Source: Candidatus Pacearchaeota archaeon (GTDB lineage Archaea > Nanobdellota > Nanobdellia > Pacearchaeales > GW2011-AR1). From it: DNA of 64,000 nucleotides. This document shows, piece after piece, positions 12,522-19,336 of this stretch; the stretch's first letter is position 1; every line of letters begins with the position of its first letter. Below the pieces are notes generated by a model. That model was given only the letters and a program-made list of their open reading frames with translations, did not search any database and had not been told where the DNA came from. Location: assembly GCA_018303945.1 (NCBI GenBank), contig JAGVXD010000019.1, positions 2,975 through 66,974 of the forward strand. The letters are read 5' to 3'. The position numbers were made by a program, and so were the translations under genes.

Positions 12522-12647
12522 GGCTCCGTAGCTCAGCCCGGTTAGAGTACTGGACTCTTACATTTAAAGGCGTAAGTCTTAAATGGCTCATGATTGATAT
12601 ACAATCGAGAAATCCAGGTGTCGCGGGTTCAAATCCCGTCGGGGCCA
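12522..12647 (+). tRNA. tRNA-Lys(CUU) with a 51-nt intron (12561..12611)
   Basis: Acceptor GGCTCCG/CGGGGCC, anticodon stem CTGGA/TCCAG, loop CTCTTA|A, T arm GCGGG-TTCAAAT-CCCGT. Confidence 0.8.
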
Positions 12648-12732: not shown

Positions 12733-13911
12733 ATGAGAATATATCCCTACAATAATAAAGATAGATATCTCTCCTGGAAAGAAGGATTAACAGGCTTCAT
12801 AGAAGGTATAAGTAAAGAAAACTCGGATATTCTACTAAGGTATCTTAATGATATGGAAATAGGTATAAACGTTGCCAGAGGGGTTAAAAAAGGCTCCAGA
12901 AGCTATGTGCACCTTAATTCATCAAGAGACAGACTTATTTCCATGATGAAAAAAATGAGTAGCTCGTATGGAGTTGATGACATAACTACTGTGACTGATG
13001 AGCAACTTCATGTTTTCTTTAATGATATGAGAAACGGCAAGATTACTAAACCTAATGGTCAAAAGTACATATGTGTTAGAGACTTTGTTAAAATGTTCAA
13101 AGCCTTTTGGCACTGGCATCAAAGAGTGAATGCCAAAAAAGGAATCCAAATTCAAGATATTACTGTAGACTTGGATACAAGAGAGGAAAAACCTGACTGG
13201 GTCTATCTTACAGAAGAACAAATAAGGAAATTGGCCGATAATGCTAAATATGAATGGAGAGTATTGATTTGGTTCTTGTACGATACAGGAATTAGAGCAC
13301 CTACTGAACTAATGAATGTTAAGGTTTCAGACCTACATAATGATTTCAAAGAGCTTAATATTAGAGAGGAAATAGTTAAAATTGGTTCATTTGGAAGAAG
13401 AATTAAGCTTATGCTCTACAGTTCATTGTTAAAAGAGTATGTAAAACTGAACAATCTAAAAAGCAGCGATTCTCTCTTTAATATAAACTATAATTCTATC
13501 AATAAGTACCTTAAGAATTTAGCTAAGAAATTGTTTGGAGAAGAAAAAACGCTTGCAGGACAAAGATATTGCGACCTAACACTTTATGACTTTAGACATA
13601 ATTCATGCTGTTATTGGCTGCCAAGATATAAGAGTGAGAGCGCATTAAAGTACAGATTTGGGTGGAAAGAGAGCGATAAGATTCATTATTACTCAGAGCT
13701 CTTGGGCATGAAAGATACTATTTCAGAACAAGATATGTTTGTTGATCTTACAAGAACAGAGATAGAAAAGAGACTGGAAAAATCTGAAAAAGAACGAGAA
13801 ATATTAAATGATAAATTCAGGTTGCTTGAAGAAGAGCAGAACGTCTTAAAGCAAACTGTTGCAGAACTCATCCACAATTTTAATGGAAAAAATATATCAA
13901 CTCCTATTTAG
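12733..13911 (+). CDS. int: tyrosine recombinase / phage-type integrase
   Basis: 392 aa with DTGIRAPTEL (box I Arg), LYDFRHNSCCYW (HxxR-like box II) and HYY near the C-terminus. It lies directly after a tRNA. Confidence 0.8.
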   Translation: MRIYPYNNKDRYLSWKEGLTGFIEGISKENSDILLRYLNDMEIGINVARGVKKGSRSYVHLNSSRDRLISMMKKMSSSYGVDDITTVTDEQLHVFFNDMRNGKITKPNGQKYICVRDFVKMFKAFWHWHQRVNAKKGIQIQDITVDLDTREEKPDWVYLTEEQIRKLADNAKYEWRVLIWFLYDTGIRAPTELMNVKVSDLHNDFKELNIREEIVKIGSFGRRIKLMLYSSLLKEYVKLNNLKSSDSLFNINYNSINKYLKNLAKKLFGEEKTLAGQRYCDLTLYDFRHNSCCYWLPRYKSESALKYRFGWKESDKIHYYSELLGMKDTISEQDMFVDLTRTEIEKRLEKSEKEREILNDKFRLLEEEQNVLKQTVAELIHNFNGKNISTPI

Positions 13912-14285: not shown

Positions 14286-14326
14286 CACTTGATTATAAAG
14301 TTCGCTTTTCATTTTATCTCCTAAAC

Positions 14327-14758
14327 TCACGGCTTTTGCGCGGCGGCTACGCCGCTAATGCAAACTACCCGACCATACTCGCCCGAGTCAGCCAAATCAT
14401 CGTCGTTCGAGTTGATATTGAGGTTCCAGTTGAGGAACAACCTCGAAAGTCCTGAATTTCTAGTCCATAATTGTCTGTTCTTACCAGGAACATCAGTATC
14501 ATACACTTTTGTTGGCAAACCTGTTTTAGCATCCATTTCAGAGGAATTAATGTAAGATCCATGTTTGCTGTTAAGAATGGGTGCTTCAAAATAAAGAGGA
14601 GTATCAAGAAGTTCTTTCTTTAAATTAAATGCTAGTTTATTAGGCGCCTTATTTTCTTTCCTCAATGAAAGTCCATATAAAGGTAGCACATAAGCAGTAT
14701 TTTCAAGGCTTGCCAGCGCCTCTAAATTGATCATAGAAATCCAAAGCGAGCCAACCAT
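14327..14758 (-). CDS. unknown protein B1 (paralog of 17156..17557)
   Basis: Shares LENTAYVLPLYGLSLRKENKAPNKLAFNLKKELL and NRQLWTRNSGLSRL...GRVVCISG.AAAQKP with B2. The ATG at 14758 is preferred. Confidence 0.55.
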   Translation of the reverse strand: MVGSLWISMINLEALASLENTAYVLPLYGLSLRKENKAPNKLAFNLKKELLDTPLYFEAPILNSKHGSYINSSEMDAKTGLPTKVYDTDVPGKNRQLWTRNSGLSRLFLNWNLNINSNDDDLADSGEYGRVVCISGVAAAQKP

Positions 14759-15230
14759 TAGGATTTCCTTTCGATCTCCATACAAGTGAAGAATCTTCAT
14801 ATTGATTTTGCAAAGGCAATTTATTTCCTTTTAAGATAGCTTCTAACTCTGCTTGTGTTGCTGTTCTAATATTCTTAGGTTGCAATATTTGATTTGCAAC
14901 TATAACTGCGTATGGGTTAGAGCCCTCTACAACTTTCTTTGTAGAATTCCACTTAAGTATCTTAAGAGCGCTTGCGTCATTATAATCTACTTTTACTACC
15001 CGCTCATATTCTTTCAAGAAATCTTTTCCAAAATCTCCTGATAGAAAGAAAGCTGAGGCGAACGGAATCTGGGGAATTGGAGTATTTGAAGCAGGGGATA
15101 CATCAGGATTTGTTCCAGCATTCTTATCAGGTTCTGGTTCTTTATTTCCTTTACCTTTATCTGGCTTCTCTTGACTTACTCTTTGAGCATAGCGTTCTGC
15201 CCATTGTTTATACAGATCAAAGTTGCTCAT
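14703..15230 (-). CDS. unknown protein A1 (paralog of 17529..18017)
   Basis: Shares MSNFDLYKQWAERYAQRVSQ, a P/K/G-rich linker and a conserved C-terminal domain with A2. Confidence 0.65.
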   Translation of the reverse strand: MSNFDLYKQWAERYAQRVSQEKPDKGKGNKEPEPDKNAGTNPDVSPASNTPIPQIPFASAFFLSGDFGKDFLKEYERVVKVDYNDASALKILKWNSTKKVVEGSNPYAVIVANQILQPKNIRTATQAELEAILKGNKLPLQNQYEDSSLVWRSKGNPNGWLALDFYDQFRGAGKP

Positions 15231-15360
15231 TTTCTGCCTCCAATGATGCTAACAATATATCGAGACCTTGCTCTAAAGCATGCGATTTATTTCTGAATGC
15301 TCCTTTGCGTACATACTCTTCAACTTTCTGTATCTTTTCTTCTTCTACAGTTATACTCAT
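15217..15360 (-). CDS. ribbon-helix-helix (CopG/Arc-like) small protein, 47 aa
   Basis: Not in the ORF track. Sequence MSITVEEEKIQKVEEYVRKGAFRNKSHALEQGLDILL fits the RHH strand-helix-helix pattern. It starts 8 nt after the vWA gene stop and overlaps the A1 start. Confidence 0.5.
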   Translation of the reverse strand: MSITVEEEKIQKVEEYVRKGAFRNKSHALEQGLDILLASLEAENEQL

Positions 15361-15368
15361 TTTCTGCT

Positions 15369-17159
15369 TCATGCTGTAGCTCCTGCAATTTTAGGGCTTT
15401 GCTTATAATAACTTGAAACAAAGGAAACCATGCTTCGTGAAAGATCCTCATCGCCTTTTACGTTAATAACTGGAACTCCCAGATCCTTTAGATACGTTGA
15501 AAACGCTGTGTCGCCACCAATTTGAATATGTGCATAATCAGCAGTTCGTATCTTTTGTTCAAAACTAGTTTTTTGAGAGCCATTCATGCTAAATTCTCCA
15601 TCTGAAATAGACAAGACTAAAGCACTATCTTCGATTTCTTTCTCCAAGCCCTCGCTATCAAAGGTAGTAGTTCCTGAGGGTTTTGTTAGCAAGGATTTGG
15701 CGACTAATTCTGATTTTCCACGCACTGCTGATTCTCCTGAGAATCCCAGAACGCTACTTTCAATGTAAGGAGCTACGCCTTGGCGTTCAAAGAAGTTATC
15801 AATGCCAAAATATCCTTTTAATGCGAAATGATATTTACTATTATCTCCCCATGGGATATATGAAGTATTTCCTACTTCTTTTCCATTATCTGAATTAAGA
15901 GCCATACTTCCTGATCTATCCATAAGTGCAAGCTTGAAGTTAGGAAACTGGTGAGGATGTTTCTTGTAAGCAACAGGGTGTTCAACATGATGTTTAGTTG
16001 TCTTTAAACCCATCTCTCCATCAGATTTGAATCCTACTCCTCTGAACTTAAACTTACGTTCATCTTCCTTAACAAATCGTCTCCCATAGCGTACAAGAGG
16101 CATTGCTTGACTTGCTGAGTAATGAGTAGTTTCTACAGGAATTTCCTTAGAAATTTTCTTATAGAGGTCATATAGTTGCTCTTGTAAATCTCTATGTGCA
16201 AGCGGTGCTTCCCCTCCCTGATATCTGCCAAAGGCAATTTCCTGCCTATTAGAAGGCATTTTCATTTCTCGATCAAAAGGATTCTGCTCCTCTGAATTCT
16301 CATCGCCCTCACTTGATCCAAACATTCTTTGTTGCGGTGGCTGATCTTCCAGCAATTTACCTAGATGAACAGCAAAAGAATATCCGAGATTGCTCCATGT
16401 TTTCGCTCTTTGGCGTATATCTGTAGGATCAAACAGCTTTTGGAATCCAGATTTTTCATGTAACTTAAATATCTTCTCTTCTTGGGTAACTGTTCTCATT
16501 TCTCCGAGAAATTGTCCGACTGCTTCTTTTACTTCTGGTTTATCACCAAAGAATCTCTTAAGAAGACTATAGTCTGCTGCTCTTCCTGCAAGCATAAGGT
16601 TAACTTTGACAAAAGCCTCGTAAAAAAGATTATATTTTCCATCCTGCCCATTCACAAGCCCGTGGTTATTCCAAAAAAGAGTTTGGCCTGCAAAATCGGT
16701 ATGTCTCCTGCAATTAATATTATCAAGTACATCTTCAAAAGCATTAGTAACATACTGCTCAAGACCGTTTTTGCCTATCTCTTGCAGTCCTCGTGTTACT
16801 TTGTCCTTGATTCTCTCGTGAGTTTCTAAATCATAGGGGCAACCATATCGTTCTCCTACCTTATTTTCTCTGTGTCCTGCTTCATGGTCGAGTACATCCT
16901 GTCCCGTTTTAAGCAAGGGATCTTTAATCCCTCTAAGAGATGCAAAACGCTTGCTTTCCTCATCAGGCACTAAATCCAAATCTCTTCCATAAGAAAGACT
17001 AATTTCTTTCCAATCTGTTGTAATATGGCCTGCAAAAGTATTTCCAGCAACTTCATCAACATTTAATCTAATTCCAATTAATCCGATCTTGTTTTTTTGC
17101 TGTTCAAGTGCTTGTTTGATGTTTTGAAGTTCGCTTTTCATTTTATCTCCTAAACTCAC
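15369..17159 (-). CDS. vWA-domain protein with N-terminal HExxH metallopeptidase-like motif (MoxR partner; CobT-like architecture)
   Basis: 596 aa with HEAGH at about residue 84 and the MIDAS motif DRSGS (ALMDRSGSM) in the C-terminal third. GTG start. Confidence 0.8.
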   Translation of the reverse strand: MSLGDKMKSELQNIKQALEQQKNKIGLIGIRLNVDEVAGNTFAGHITTDWKEISLSYGRDLDLVPDEESKRFASLRGIKDPLLKTGQDVLDHEAGHRENKVGERYGCPYDLETHERIKDKVTRGLQEIGKNGLEQYVTNAFEDVLDNINCRRHTDFAGQTLFWNNHGLVNGQDGKYNLFYEAFVKVNLMLAGRAADYSLLKRFFGDKPEVKEAVGQFLGEMRTVTQEEKIFKLHEKSGFQKLFDPTDIRQRAKTWSNLGYSFAVHLGKLLEDQPPQQRMFGSSEGDENSEEQNPFDREMKMPSNRQEIAFGRYQGGEAPLAHRDLQEQLYDLYKKISKEIPVETTHYSASQAMPLVRYGRRFVKEDERKFKFRGVGFKSDGEMGLKTTKHHVEHPVAYKKHPHQFPNFKLALMDRSGSMALNSDNGKEVGNTSYIPWGDNSKYHFALKGYFGIDNFFERQGVAPYIESSVLGFSGESAVRGKSELVAKSLLTKPSGTTTFDSEGLEKEIEDSALVLSISDGEFSMNGSQKTSFEQKIRTADYAHIQIGGDTAFSTYLKDLGVPVINVKGDEDLSRSMVSFVSSYYKQSPKIAGATA

Positions 17160-17557
17160 GGCTTTTGCGCGGCGGCTGCGCCGCTAATGCAAACTACCCG
17201 ACCAGCCTCATACGAGCCGGCGAGAACCCCGCCCCTAGCGAAGAGATCCAAGTCCCTGATGAGGTACAACCTCGAAAGTCCTGAATTTCTAGTCCATAAT
17301 TGTCTGTTCCCTGGAACAGCATTCTCATAGACTTTCTTCGGTAGTCCAGTATTGGTATCAACTTCTCCAGCTTTAACATATAATCCGTCTTTACTCATAA
17401 GTATATGAGCTTCAAAATAAAGAGGAGTATAAAGAAGTTCTTTCTTTAAATTAAATGCTAGTTTATTAGGCGCCTTATTTTCTTTCCTCAATGAAAGTCC
17501 ATATAAAGGTAGCACATAAGCAGTATTTTCAAGCGAGCCAACTATTAGGATCTGCAT
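17156..17557 (-). CDS. unknown protein B2
   Basis: Paralog of B1. It overlaps the A2 3' end by 29 nt and the vWA gene start by 4 nt. Confidence 0.55.
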   Translation of the reverse strand: MQILIVGSLENTAYVLPLYGLSLRKENKAPNKLAFNLKKELLYTPLYFEAHILMSKDGLYVKAGEVDTNTGLPKKVYENAVPGNRQLWTRNSGLSRLYLIRDLDLFARGGVLAGSYEAGRVVCISGAAAAQKP

Positions 17558-18017
17558 TAGATCTCCACACGAGAGAAGATTCTACATAATGATTTCCTTT
17601 GATAGGTAATGTATTTGCCTGTGCAATTTTCTCTAACTCTGCTTGTGTAGCAGTTCTGATTCCACTTTTCTCAAGAATCATGTTAGAAAGAACAACTGCA
17701 AAAGGATTTGAGCCCGTTACTTTTTGATTGGCATCATCCCAATTAAGAACTTGCAAAGCTGAGGCATTATTATAATCTTTCTTAACTCTTGCGTTATATT
17801 CCTTTAGAAAGTCTTTTCCAAATTGTCCTTTCAAAAATGAAGCACTCCCAAAAGTATGGGGAACAACAAGAGGAGTGGTTGCATTTGAATCAGGTTGACT
17901 TCCAGCATCTGGCTTAGAATCTGCTTTTTTTCCTTTTCCACCTTTGTCTGGTTGTCCTTGACTTACTCTTTGAGCATAGCGTTCTGCCCATTGCTTGTAA
18001 AGGTCGAAATTACTCAT
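17529..18017 (-). CDS. unknown protein A2
   Basis: Paralog of A1. It starts 2 nt after the MoxR stop. Confidence 0.65.
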   Translation of the reverse strand: MSNFDLYKQWAERYAQRVSQGQPDKGGKGKKADSKPDAGSQPDSNATTPLVVPHTFGSASFLKGQFGKDFLKEYNARVKKDYNNASALQVLNWDDANQKVTGSNPFAVVLSNMILEKSGIRTATQAELEKIAQANTLPIKGNHYVESSLVWRSNADPNSWLA

Positions 18018-18019
18018 GG

Positions 18020-19336
18020 TTATTTCCTCCCTTGTTCTCTTGCTCTTTCAATAATCTCTCGTAATTTGGCCTTTTCTGGATTTTTATCATTCTTCATGAT
18101 TGATGCATAATCTTGAATTGCTTCTTTTACTGGTGTCCAACGACCCTTAACTGATGCAACATCGTTGAGCAAATCTGCATCAGTTATACCTGCTTCTGCT
18201 AAAGCTACAGCTTCCTCAAGCTTAGAAACTCTCTCGAGTATTTCTCTTCGATTGCCTGAATTTTGGCCGAAAAGAGTATCAAAAGCTGAATAAACATCCC
18301 CATTATGTTCTTGGTCTATGTACATTGGAGCAATAACTCCTGAATAAGGAACAGTCAATCGTAAGGCGTCAAGAAATAAATTAGAAGTGGTTGGCTGTTT
18401 TCCTTTTGCTTCTGCAATCATTTGCAAAGCCCCAGTTAACCCGATAGCAGAAAGTACTCCTCTTGGAGAAAATGGAAATACTTTGTTTTCATCAATATCT
18501 GTTCTAATACCTTCCAAATTTGGCCAGCGAGCATCGCATTTAGCTTTGCTATTGCCTTTTACATTTTCCAAATAATCTAAACCTTCCGTAAAATAAAGTC
18601 CTAAAATAGGAAGAAGAGGATACGTTTCTCGTTCTCCAAATTCCTTATGTAATGCAAGAATATCTTCTTTTGAAACTTGTGCCTCATTAGGCATGTCAGA
18701 TCTAGGATTTTTCTTTCCTTTGAACACACTTAAAAGATTTTGAGGTGTCGGCCTATAATCAGGATGATCCAACTTAACAATCATATGCATTCTATCTTTT
18801 AATGCTCTATCTGAATCTGAAACACCTACATATTCTCCATTTCCAAGATTTCCAGTTGCAAAACCAATGCTATAGCCATCAGTTCCTAAATTGAGAATTT
18901 TTCCATCATGAACTAATTTTCCATCAAAGAAGTCAAAGAAATAGTTCTGGACAATAGGTGGAGCCCTATTTAATTCGTCAATAAAGAAAAGATTTTTTCG
19001 CACGTTTTCAGTTAACTCTACAAGCTCTCGATCGGTTTTTGCATCCTTAAGACTCCCTAACCTCACTTGTTTTAAAAGTTCAGAAGGTTCAAAATCTGGG
19101 CGACCCATTGCATAACAGGCAGAATCATTAAAATAGCTCAAAAGATCATGTCCAAGTTGAGTCTTACCTCTTCCTGTTCCTCCCACATAATAGACATTTA
19201 ATCTTGCAATCAAAGGAGCTTTTACCAAAACATCTCGTGCACTATAGGCAACACCACCAAGAGAGATCTCTCTATCGTTGGAGTATCTTCCTGCCTCTAA
19301 TCGTTCAATTGCCTGCTTTGATTTATCTGATACCAT
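18020..19336 (-). CDS. MoxR-family AAA+ ATPase (CobS-like)
   Basis: 438 aa with Walker A GGTGRGKT and the MoxR-typical Walker B FFIDELNRAPP. Confidence 0.85.
   Translation of the reverse strand: MVSDKSKQAIERLEAGRYSNDREISLGGVAYSARDVLVKAPLIARLNVYYVGGTGRGKTQLGHDLLSYFNDSACYAMGRPDFEPSELLKQVRLGSLKDAKTDRELVELTENVRKNLFFIDELNRAPPIVQNYFFDFFDGKLVHDGKILNLGTDGYSIGFATGNLGNGEYVGVSDSDRALKDRMHMIVKLDHPDYRPTPQNLLSVFKGKKNPRSDMPNEAQVSKEDILALHKEFGERETYPLLPILGLYFTEGLDYLENVKGNSKAKCDARWPNLEGIRTDIDENKVFPFSPRGVLSAIGLTGALQMIAEAKGKQPTTSNLFLDALRLTVPYSGVIAPMYIDQEHNGDVYSAFDTLFGQNSGNRREILERVSKLEEAVALAEAGITDADLLNDVASVKGRWTPVKEAIQDYASIMKNDKNPEKAKLREIIERAREQGRK

Follow-up and report, generated by a model that had tools for sequence, protein, structure and literature searches.

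Two putative variable-protein genes of diversity-generating retroelements in a Pacearchaeota ATPase/vWA module, with a shared frame break that is most likely an assembly artefact

Diversity-generating retroelements (DGRs) and their variable proteins have been described from DPANN and CPR genomes (Paul et al. 2017, cited in PMC10907252 and PMC5758913; Roux et al. 2021, PMC8144416). As far as these sources set them out, the variable proteins carry a C-terminal variable region that differs from its template specifically at adenines, and they lack recognisable domains or membrane segments. Reverse transcriptase genes and RT-16 RNA lie nearby, one element may have several targets, and several DGRs may be present in one small genome. 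The same traits were found in a pair of paralogous genes from a Candidatus Pacearchaeota archaeon and in loci related to them. Judged by their sequences, both genes are variable proteins of DGRs, with tips that would be rewritten by a DGR. Unlike the elements so described, the locus studied here has neither a template nor a reverse transcriptase of its own, and the variable region of copy 2 appears to have been re-templated from the DGR of another contig and to be chimeric, with its 5' and 3' parts belonging to different template types. As for the fold, only weak matches were obtained, and none that would place the proteins in the C-type lectin class typical of DGR targets. The structure model, a confident one (pLDDT 87), had no significant match in the PDB, with EgtB, the CD23 lectin, and TaqVP recovered only at E>1, and it weakly matched a phage tail-collar fibre (E=5e-3). 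The family had no match in Pfam, NCBIfam, PHROGs, PADLOC, or PDB sequences.

The stretch of DNA analysed as a whole, referred to here as the window, comprises 64,000 nucleotides of contig JAGVXD010000019.1 (positions 2,975 to 66,974; assembly GCA_018303945.1). An earlier note on this DNA had described two paralogous gene pairs, A1-B1 and A2-B2, both on the minus strand, and the pairs are evident in the sequence. The coordinates of these and the neighbouring features are collected in Table 1.

Table 1. Features of the variable-protein locus and its surroundings in the window
Feature	Position	Strand	Remarks
Tyrosine integrase	12733..13911	+	Adjoins intron-bearing tRNA (12522-12647)
Variable-protein gene, copy 1 (A1+B1)	14327..15230	-	Probable true gene, 302 aa
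Copy 1, 3' end of variable region: IMH-like element and GC hairpin (candidates)	14343..14375	-	
Copy 1, variable region	14376..14449	-	NWNLNINSNDDD, AAC-codon-rich
Copy 1 of 102-nt exact block, remnant of the true 155-nt exact repeat	14606..14707		Specific base 14605, join 14704/14705
Ribbon-helix-helix-like protein, 51 aa	15217..15372	-	NikR/ParD/CdrS matches, weak only
596-aa protein between the two copies	15369..17159	-	HEAGH, DRSGSM, C-terminal vWA-like fold
Variable-protein gene, copy 2 (A2+B2)	17156..18017	-	Probable true gene, 301 aa
Copy 2, 3' end of variable region: IMH-like element and hairpin (candidates)	17172..17204	-	
Copy 2, variable region	17205..17278	-	Template match at C17
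Copy 2 of 102-nt exact block	17432..17533		Specific base 17431, join 17530/17531
MoxR-like AAA+ ATPase (AAA_5), first gene of the module	18020..19336	-	PF07728, E=8e-9

A template for copy 2 was located on another contig of the same genome, C17. The tract 17199-17258 consists of variable-region sequence together with TGGTCG, the adjoining part of the IMH-like element. Compared with the template at C17:6005-6091, 10 of 16 template adenines in it are changed and none of the 44 other bases (Fisher p=1e-7). Adenine-specific differences between template and variable region were also present in the orthologous pair of a related strain (L011) and in the homologue on L016. The L011 template and the variable regions at C6:295-384 and C9:68-192 share their type with the variable region of copy 1, for which no template was found anywhere in the 87%-complete assembly. 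The template on C21 was considered as a candidate for copy 1 and rejected, being of a third type. The genome has two reverse transcriptase genes (RVT_1 on C17 and C21, none in the window), each preceded by an RT-16 RNA and a template, with the RNA on the upstream side of the template, and in related loci the reverse transcriptase genes adjoin the homologues.

At the 3' end of the variable region, both copies carry what may be a target element, consisting of a GC-rich IMH-like element and a hairpin, GCGGC-GYA-GCCGC. The IMH-like element reads TGGTCGGGTAG in the targets and TGGTCGAATA at the same place in the templates. Copy 1 has TGGTCGGGTAGTTTGC at 14360-14375 and the hairpin GCGGC-GTA-GCCGC at 14343-14355; the same IMH-like element is found in copy 2 at 17189-17204, with the hairpin GCGGC-GCA-GCCGC at 17172-17184.

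Identity between the two copies is patchy, as the earlier note had pointed out. The stretches 14583-14707 and 17409-17533 are identical except for one base, at 14605/17431, and a 51-nt block at the 3' end (14298-14348 and 17128-17178) is identical throughout and takes in the start of the 596-aa gene. Such a mosaic of identical tracts fits concerted evolution. On either side of the 3' variable stretch, the patches probably represent target elements of the retroelement and sequence copied from a template, and not only the product of gene conversion. The proposal of a duplication followed by gene conversion held for the paralogy and the mosaic tracts but neither for a recent tandem duplication nor for conversion as the sole process. 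The gene order ATPase, variable protein, HExxH/vWA protein, and variable protein is also seen in L011, on contig C17 of this genome at a second locus that has diverged strongly, and in L028 with another family of variable proteins, indicating that the arrangement is not a recent tandem duplication. Outside the identical blocks, the copies had also been said to differ mainly at synonymous sites. This was not the case, as the intact copies have 152 identical codons, 50 with synonymous changes, and 99 with amino acid changes.

In the window, a TGA in ..CTTGAAAATAC.. ends the A frame in both copies, and B goes on in the +1 frame. B overlaps A by 29 nt in copy 2. Copy 1 offers three ATGs in the frame of B, and counting from one of them yields the overlap of 56 nt previously reported. 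The copies also differ in length by 39 nt just before the stop. The difference itself is there in the sequence, but it represents a loss in copy 2 and not, as had been proposed, an insertion in copy 1. The 39 nt code for a conserved helix, in which one Gln is nearly invariant, and other contigs of this strain have them in copy 2.

The earlier note had left open two readings of the split, overlapping coupled genes or programmed +1 frameshifting, and had suggested examining whether homologues encode A and B as a single ORF. They clearly do, which argues against both of these readings. A and B formed one ORF of about 240-310 aa in 87 of 87 homologues, with the full-length matches coming from proteins of about 300 aa, and also in the best 150 of the 391 cluster representatives obtained at E<=0.001, in which both halves were covered in one stretch. 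The homologues in the genomes of relatives are likewise in single open frames. Short representatives were contig-end fragments or came from one rearranged locus. Several candidates for independently split genes were rejected: in P0208 and P0219 a contig end truncates the gene, L021 begins with adapter-like sequence, and P0014 belongs to a rearranged locus in which the A part is followed by RT-16-like sequence in inverted orientation and by a convergent paralogue.

The same strain is represented by contigs of other assemblies. One of these, L001, showed 0 mismatches to the window across 12.9 kb, the only differences being two gaps, of 5 and 44 nt, and L001 to L004 had 0 to 1 mismatches and encoded copy 1 as one ORF (P0002). 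With 5 additional bases in copy 1 and 44 in copy 2, the same-strain contigs have ORFs of 302 and 301 aa. These are the bases that the window lacks at the joins given in Table 1, those of copy 1 being TGAAG in the sense direction. The intact junction reads TTTGAAGGAAAAT and the shortened junction CTTGAAAAT. Intact copy 1 was present on 12 contigs and intact copy 2 (P0092) on 8, while the truncated proteins were found on 1 contig each, namely the 74,869-nt contig of the window itself. The deleted junction had no match among metagenome, genome, and viral contigs, a result of little weight since near-identical records were masked and even the intact junction was found only once.

The position of the breaks points to the way in which they arose. 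The true exact repeat common to both copies is 155 nt long, and both deletions begin at the copy-specific base plus 99 nt, the point where the last 100-mer specific to a copy ends. Exact 99-mers are shared by 21 of the 44 contig ends of the genome's assembly, indicating that it was built with k=100. The longest exact repeat surviving in the assembly is 121 nt and itself consists of two overlapping 99-mers. Elsewhere, L002, from another assembly, breaks exactly at the start of the 155-nt repeat, and L005-7 join A2 to B1 at this repeat. Because both breaks lie at the k=100 boundary within the repeat, the frame break is most likely a mis-joined overlap and not of biological origin. Retention of the break in both copies had been taken as an argument against error; however, the two breaks share the same assembler k-mer boundary, and a frame break kept in two paralogues is no proof against error when both sit inside one repeat.

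An assembly with k=100 would have given copy-specific pieces whose ends or starts lie 99 nt into the repeat and whose true overlap is 43 nt. If a joining step of the software mis-estimated the overlaps as 48 and 87 nt, copy 1 would have lost 5 nt and copy 2 44 nt, both at this boundary. On the opposing side, other assemblies resolved the same repeat correctly, so such an error would not be systematic. The proposed error resembles known local misassembly at repeats slightly longer than k in de Bruijn graphs, in that the breaks lie k-1 = 99 nt from a copy-specific base, the contig ends of the genome overlap by 99 nt, and at this repeat other assemblies, too, are broken off or change from one copy to the other. 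It differs in that a small in-contig deletion without Ns was produced here and not a contig break or a collapsed copy. Taken together, the locus very probably consists of two full-length DGR variable-protein genes of 302 and 301 aa, with the A/B split being an artefact of assembly.

Real deletions are an unlikely alternative to a mis-joined overlap. They would require that a 5-nt loss in one copy was spread by gene conversion inside the shared tract and that copy 2 then lost 39 nt between CTT repeats, both copies being recent pseudogenes or two-piece genes. Gene conversion does act at this locus, given the identical tracts and hybrid forms with different crossovers, and the deposited record does carry four truncated ORFs. 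In addition, the break in copy 1 falls in a loop of the predicted structure, between helix 159-171 and strand 182-185, so that the two pieces could in principle assemble. However, three events are needed where not a single point mutation occurred in 12.9 kb, and both breaks fall exactly at the end of the last copy-specific 100-mer, a coincidence with odds of about 1 in 155 when all positions of the repeat are counted. The conserved helix would also be gone from copy 2, and the truncated forms occur on no other contig. Slippage or microhomology was considered for the 5-nt deletion and rejected, as there is no tandem repeat and end-joining at GAA would remove 4 nt and not 5.

Programmed +1 ribosomal frameshifting at the TGA, by which A and B would be fused into one protein, appears exceedingly improbable. 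As in frameshifting of the RF2 (prfB) type, the frame ends in a TGA and the sequence behind it continues at +1. In both copies the junction would place the stop codon in the A site, and a shift would restore the copy 1 protein short of only two residues. Unlike in RF2, the break is not conserved, being found in no homologue or relative, and other contigs of this strain have A and B in one frame. The copies share no slippery site either, since the codon before the TGA is CCT in copy 1 and GCT in copy 2; with CCU or GCU in the P site, neither tRNA re-pairs with CUU. The coincidence of the break with the assembler boundary counts against frameshifting and equally against A and B being natively separate, translationally coupled overlapping genes, which we consider very improbable. 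B-frame ATG codons are available upstream of the TGA in both copies, but they lie in A sequence that is out of frame and are not the same in the two copies. The single ORFs of the homologues and the in-frame contigs of the same strain speak against coupled genes as well, and the family is confidently predicted to be a single compact protein.

If the split is read as an assembly artefact, the four truncated ORFs in the deposited record should be annotated as two genes of about 300 aa. Artefacts of this kind can be exposed without reads by comparing the distance from a break to the nearest copy-specific base with the k of the assembler, here 99 nt and taken from the contig ends. This Pacearchaeota locus is a further example of a MoxR/vWA module with embedded DGR target genes. 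One of the variable regions seems to be templated from another locus, which bears on the use of several retroelements on shared targets in tiny DPANN genomes.

The 596-aa protein carries HEAGH at 16872-16886 and DRSGSM, a MIDAS-like motif (DxSxS), at 15903-15920. It had no match in Pfam, and its C-terminal portion of about 200 aa matched the vWA folds of TFIIH p44, factor B, NorD (of NorQD), and Rpn10 (probability about 1, E 3e-3 to 5e-2). The module lies on an island that also bears the integrase, which occupies the position held by the template and reverse transcriptase in L011. The variable proteins may act as diversified binding modules together with the ATPase/vWA pair. Bacterial MoxR ATPase/vWA "ternary conflict systems" with DGR-diversified sensors are the closest described arrangement (Kaur et al. 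2020, PMC7159879; PMC10907252). Unlike in those systems, none of the module's genes was found to encode a VMAP domain, a peptidase, a TIR, or another effector domain, and the vWA protein here carries HExxH and is not itself the DGR target. The likeness lies in the grouping of genes for a MoxR-like AAA+ ATPase, a protein with a vWA fold, and a protein diversified by a DGR. We tentatively suggest, with some doubt, that the module, with its conserved gene order, could be an archaeal counterpart of the bacterial DGR-diversified MoxR/vWA systems, one that can be carried on an integrase island without a retroelement of its own and whose variable regions a DGR at another place in the genome could rewrite in trans. 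If this is true, the chimeric variable region of copy 2 would be a trace of such rewriting in trans.

We compared the A and B genes with their homologues, as the earlier note had proposed, and found that homologues encode A-B as a single ORF, indicating that A and B are not separate by nature. A hypothetical A2-B2 fusion query matched 87 proteins, and the full-length matches were proteins of ~300 aa. An exhaustive search that used the intact form as query, without a profile, gave 391 representatives, and almost all of the best 150 of these span both halves in one stretch. In the whole genomes of relatives, the A-B match falls within single open frames. Candidate independent splits were rejected: P0208 and P0219 are short because of contig ends, L021 begins with adapter-like sequence, and P0014 comes from a rearranged locus. 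At L020:860-2266, a homologue is cut off directly after ...PNEYL and is followed by the reverse complement of the conserved RNA motif of diversity-generating retroelements (DGRs; by-eye comparison) and then by a diverged paralogue in convergent orientation; either the DGR locus has been rearranged or the contig is chimeric.

The same locus was found on contigs of several aquifer metagenome assemblies and in one other NCBI assembly. Over 12.9 kb, one of these contigs (L001) has 0 mismatches to the window and only two gaps: in the window, copy 1 lacks 5 nt (sense TGAAG) at the junction 14704/14705, and copy 2 lacks 44 nt at 17530/17531. With the missing bases restored, the genes encode 302 aa and 301 aa (...GAGKPLKENTAYV...). 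The truncated proteins, matched exactly, were seen on 1 contig only, the 74,869-nt contig of the window itself, and the intact proteins on 12 and 8 contigs. The junction ..CTTGAAAATACTG.. with its TGA is indeed common to both copies, as alignment and a repeat search confirmed, and it had been read as possible programmed +1 frameshifting. We consider such frameshifting highly improbable, as the frame break is not conserved, and the TGA is preceded by CCT in copy 1 versus GCT in copy 2, leaving no common shift-prone site.

Instead, an error of assembly most likely produced the flagged frame switch. When intact, the two copies have an exact 155-nt repeat in common. Each window deletion starts exactly 99 nt past the B-side base that distinguishes the copies (14605 to 14704 and 17431 to 17530), which in both copies is where the last copy-specific 100-mer ends. 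Of the 44 contig ends of this genome, 21 have an exact 99-mer in common with a further contig end or with an internal position, and exact repeats above about 100 nt are absent from the assembly, showing that the genome was assembled with a k-mer length of 100. At this k, the pieces that reach into a 155-nt repeat from the B side and from the A side have 43 nt in common. What stands in the window is the B-side piece in full, to which the A-side piece is attached starting at its offset 48 in copy 1 and 87 in copy 2. The pieces would thus have been joined with mis-estimated overlaps, a joining step of the software that we infer. A real deletion, spread between the copies by gene conversion, is unlikely. 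Other assemblies also err at the 155-nt repeat: L002 begins exactly at its first base, L005 to L007 join A2 straight to B1 with 2.8 kb skipped, and P0090 and P0095 are further hybrids.

The hybrid contigs, from three samples (L005:6001-6909, L006, and L007; proteins P0001, P0095, and P0090), carry a single A2-B1 gene without the 596-aa and 51-aa genes, and the crossover points of other hybrids differ. Such genes are either genuine recombinants of the population or products of the path that an assembler took through the repeat. The exact 99-mers at the 21 contig ends reveal which contigs adjoin; the contig of the window (C10) and the contig carrying the DGR that templates copy 2 (C17) end in the same 99-mer (C10:74771-74869 and C17:25329-25427).

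Features of the A-B locus and of related loci in the same genome
Feature	Contig	Coordinates	Strand	Remark
AAA_5 ATPase gene	window	19336..18020	minus	first in order
A2	window	18017..17529	minus	
B2	window	17557..17156	minus	
596-aa gene	window	17159..15369	minus	
51-aa gene	window	15372..15217	minus	
A1	window	15230..14703	minus	
B1	window	14800..14327	minus	
Second module	C17	685-7234		strongly diverged, same order as in the window; L018 covers part
AAA ATPase	C17	4153-5517		
Variable proteins	C17	3270-4160 and 685-1590		~300 aa
561-aa protein	C17	1577-3259		HExxH and DxSxS motifs
Template of complete DGR	C17	6005-6091		with RT-16 RNA and reverse transcriptase
Variable region	C21	50133-50222		matches C21 template
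Variable region	C11	167-256		matches C21 template
Variable region	C7	31268-31361		matches C21 template
Variable region	C18	45558-45647		matches C21 template

DNA alignment and a repeat search bore out the paralogy of the two A-B units, the 39-nt length difference ahead of the stop, and the identical 3' block reaching into the 5' end of the 596-aa gene; 14583-14707 and 17409-17533 differ solely at 14605/17431. The copies do not differ mainly at synonymous sites, as had been stated, since the intact copies have 99 codons with amino acid changes versus 50 with synonymous differences (152 are identical). Nor is the 39-nt segment an insertion in copy 1: in a 41-member alignment it codes for a conserved helix whose Gln is almost invariant, indicating a loss in copy 2. 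Beyond the copy 1 stop, the duplicated 5' end of the 596-aa gene (14298-14326) forms a 9-codon remnant ORF (MKSELYNQV), which the related strain L011 keeps in a more eroded form.

The A-B genes belong to a known kind, the DGR variable proteins of DPANN archaea, and are ordinary examples of it. Reverse transcriptase genes adjoin distant A-B homologues. In L011 an ATPase is followed by a variable protein, the 596-aa protein, a 48-aa protein, a second variable protein, RT-16 RNA, the template, and the reverse transcriptase, and both variable regions depart from the template at adenines only; the homologue in L016 has 19 adenine changes versus 2 others. A tyrosine integrase (window 12733-13911) occupies the place held by the template and reverse transcriptase in L011, adjoining a tRNA gene with a long intron (12522-12647; Rfam match, missed by ARAGORN).

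The genome of the window has two such reverse transcriptases (C17 and C21), with RT-16 RNA and a template ahead of each. The variable proteins of C17 match the A-B profile (E=1e-15 and 1e-12), and both of their variable regions depart from the C17 template at adenines only. Compared with this template, the copy 2 variable region (17199-17258) has 10 of 16 adenines changed but 0 of the 44 remaining bases (p=1e-7). The copy 1 variable region has no adenine bias relative to it and represents a second template type, which it shares with variable regions at one end each of C6 and C9 and which resembles the template of L011 closely; copy 1's own template was not found in the 87%-complete assembly. 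The 5' part of the copy 2 variable region is likewise of the second type, so this region is chimeric, as would be expected if cDNA of the C17 template had homed into it. At the end of both copies stand TGGTCGGGTAGTTTGC and the hairpin GCGGC-GYA-GCCGC; at this place the templates have TGGTCGAATA. The patchy identity that had been ascribed to gene conversion therefore consists in part of target elements flanking the variable region; gene conversion still best explains the tracts of 155 nt and 37 nt further upstream.

A third DGR template type lies upstream of the second reverse transcriptase (C21:50380-52163, L019), and an 80% similar copy of this template region is found at C22:1588-1888. The targets matching the C21 template are many for a 0.8-Mb genome.

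The A-B protein model is confident (pLDDT 87), and fold searches gave no assignment. The 596-aa protein, of a family widespread in DPANN archaea, has no Pfam match but contains the motifs HEAGH and DRSGSM, and the C-terminal ~200 residues of its confident model match vWA folds, among them that of NorD from the MoxR-type complex NorQD. A 1-Mb DPANN contig (L028:1894-10733) carries a 593-aa homologue, which comes after an AAA_5 ATPase and is flanked by two WD40 proteins and by four proteins of ~276-303 aa from a family other than A-B, with variable C-termini ending in ...GQFRG and N/Y/D-rich variable stretches; a reverse transcriptase is absent within 6 kb. We regard the module of the A-B genes as of moderate interest. 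For bacteria, DGR targets have been described as associated with MoxR ATPases and vWA proteins (PMC10907252); the same paper states that the DPANN/CPR clade is without association to such domains.
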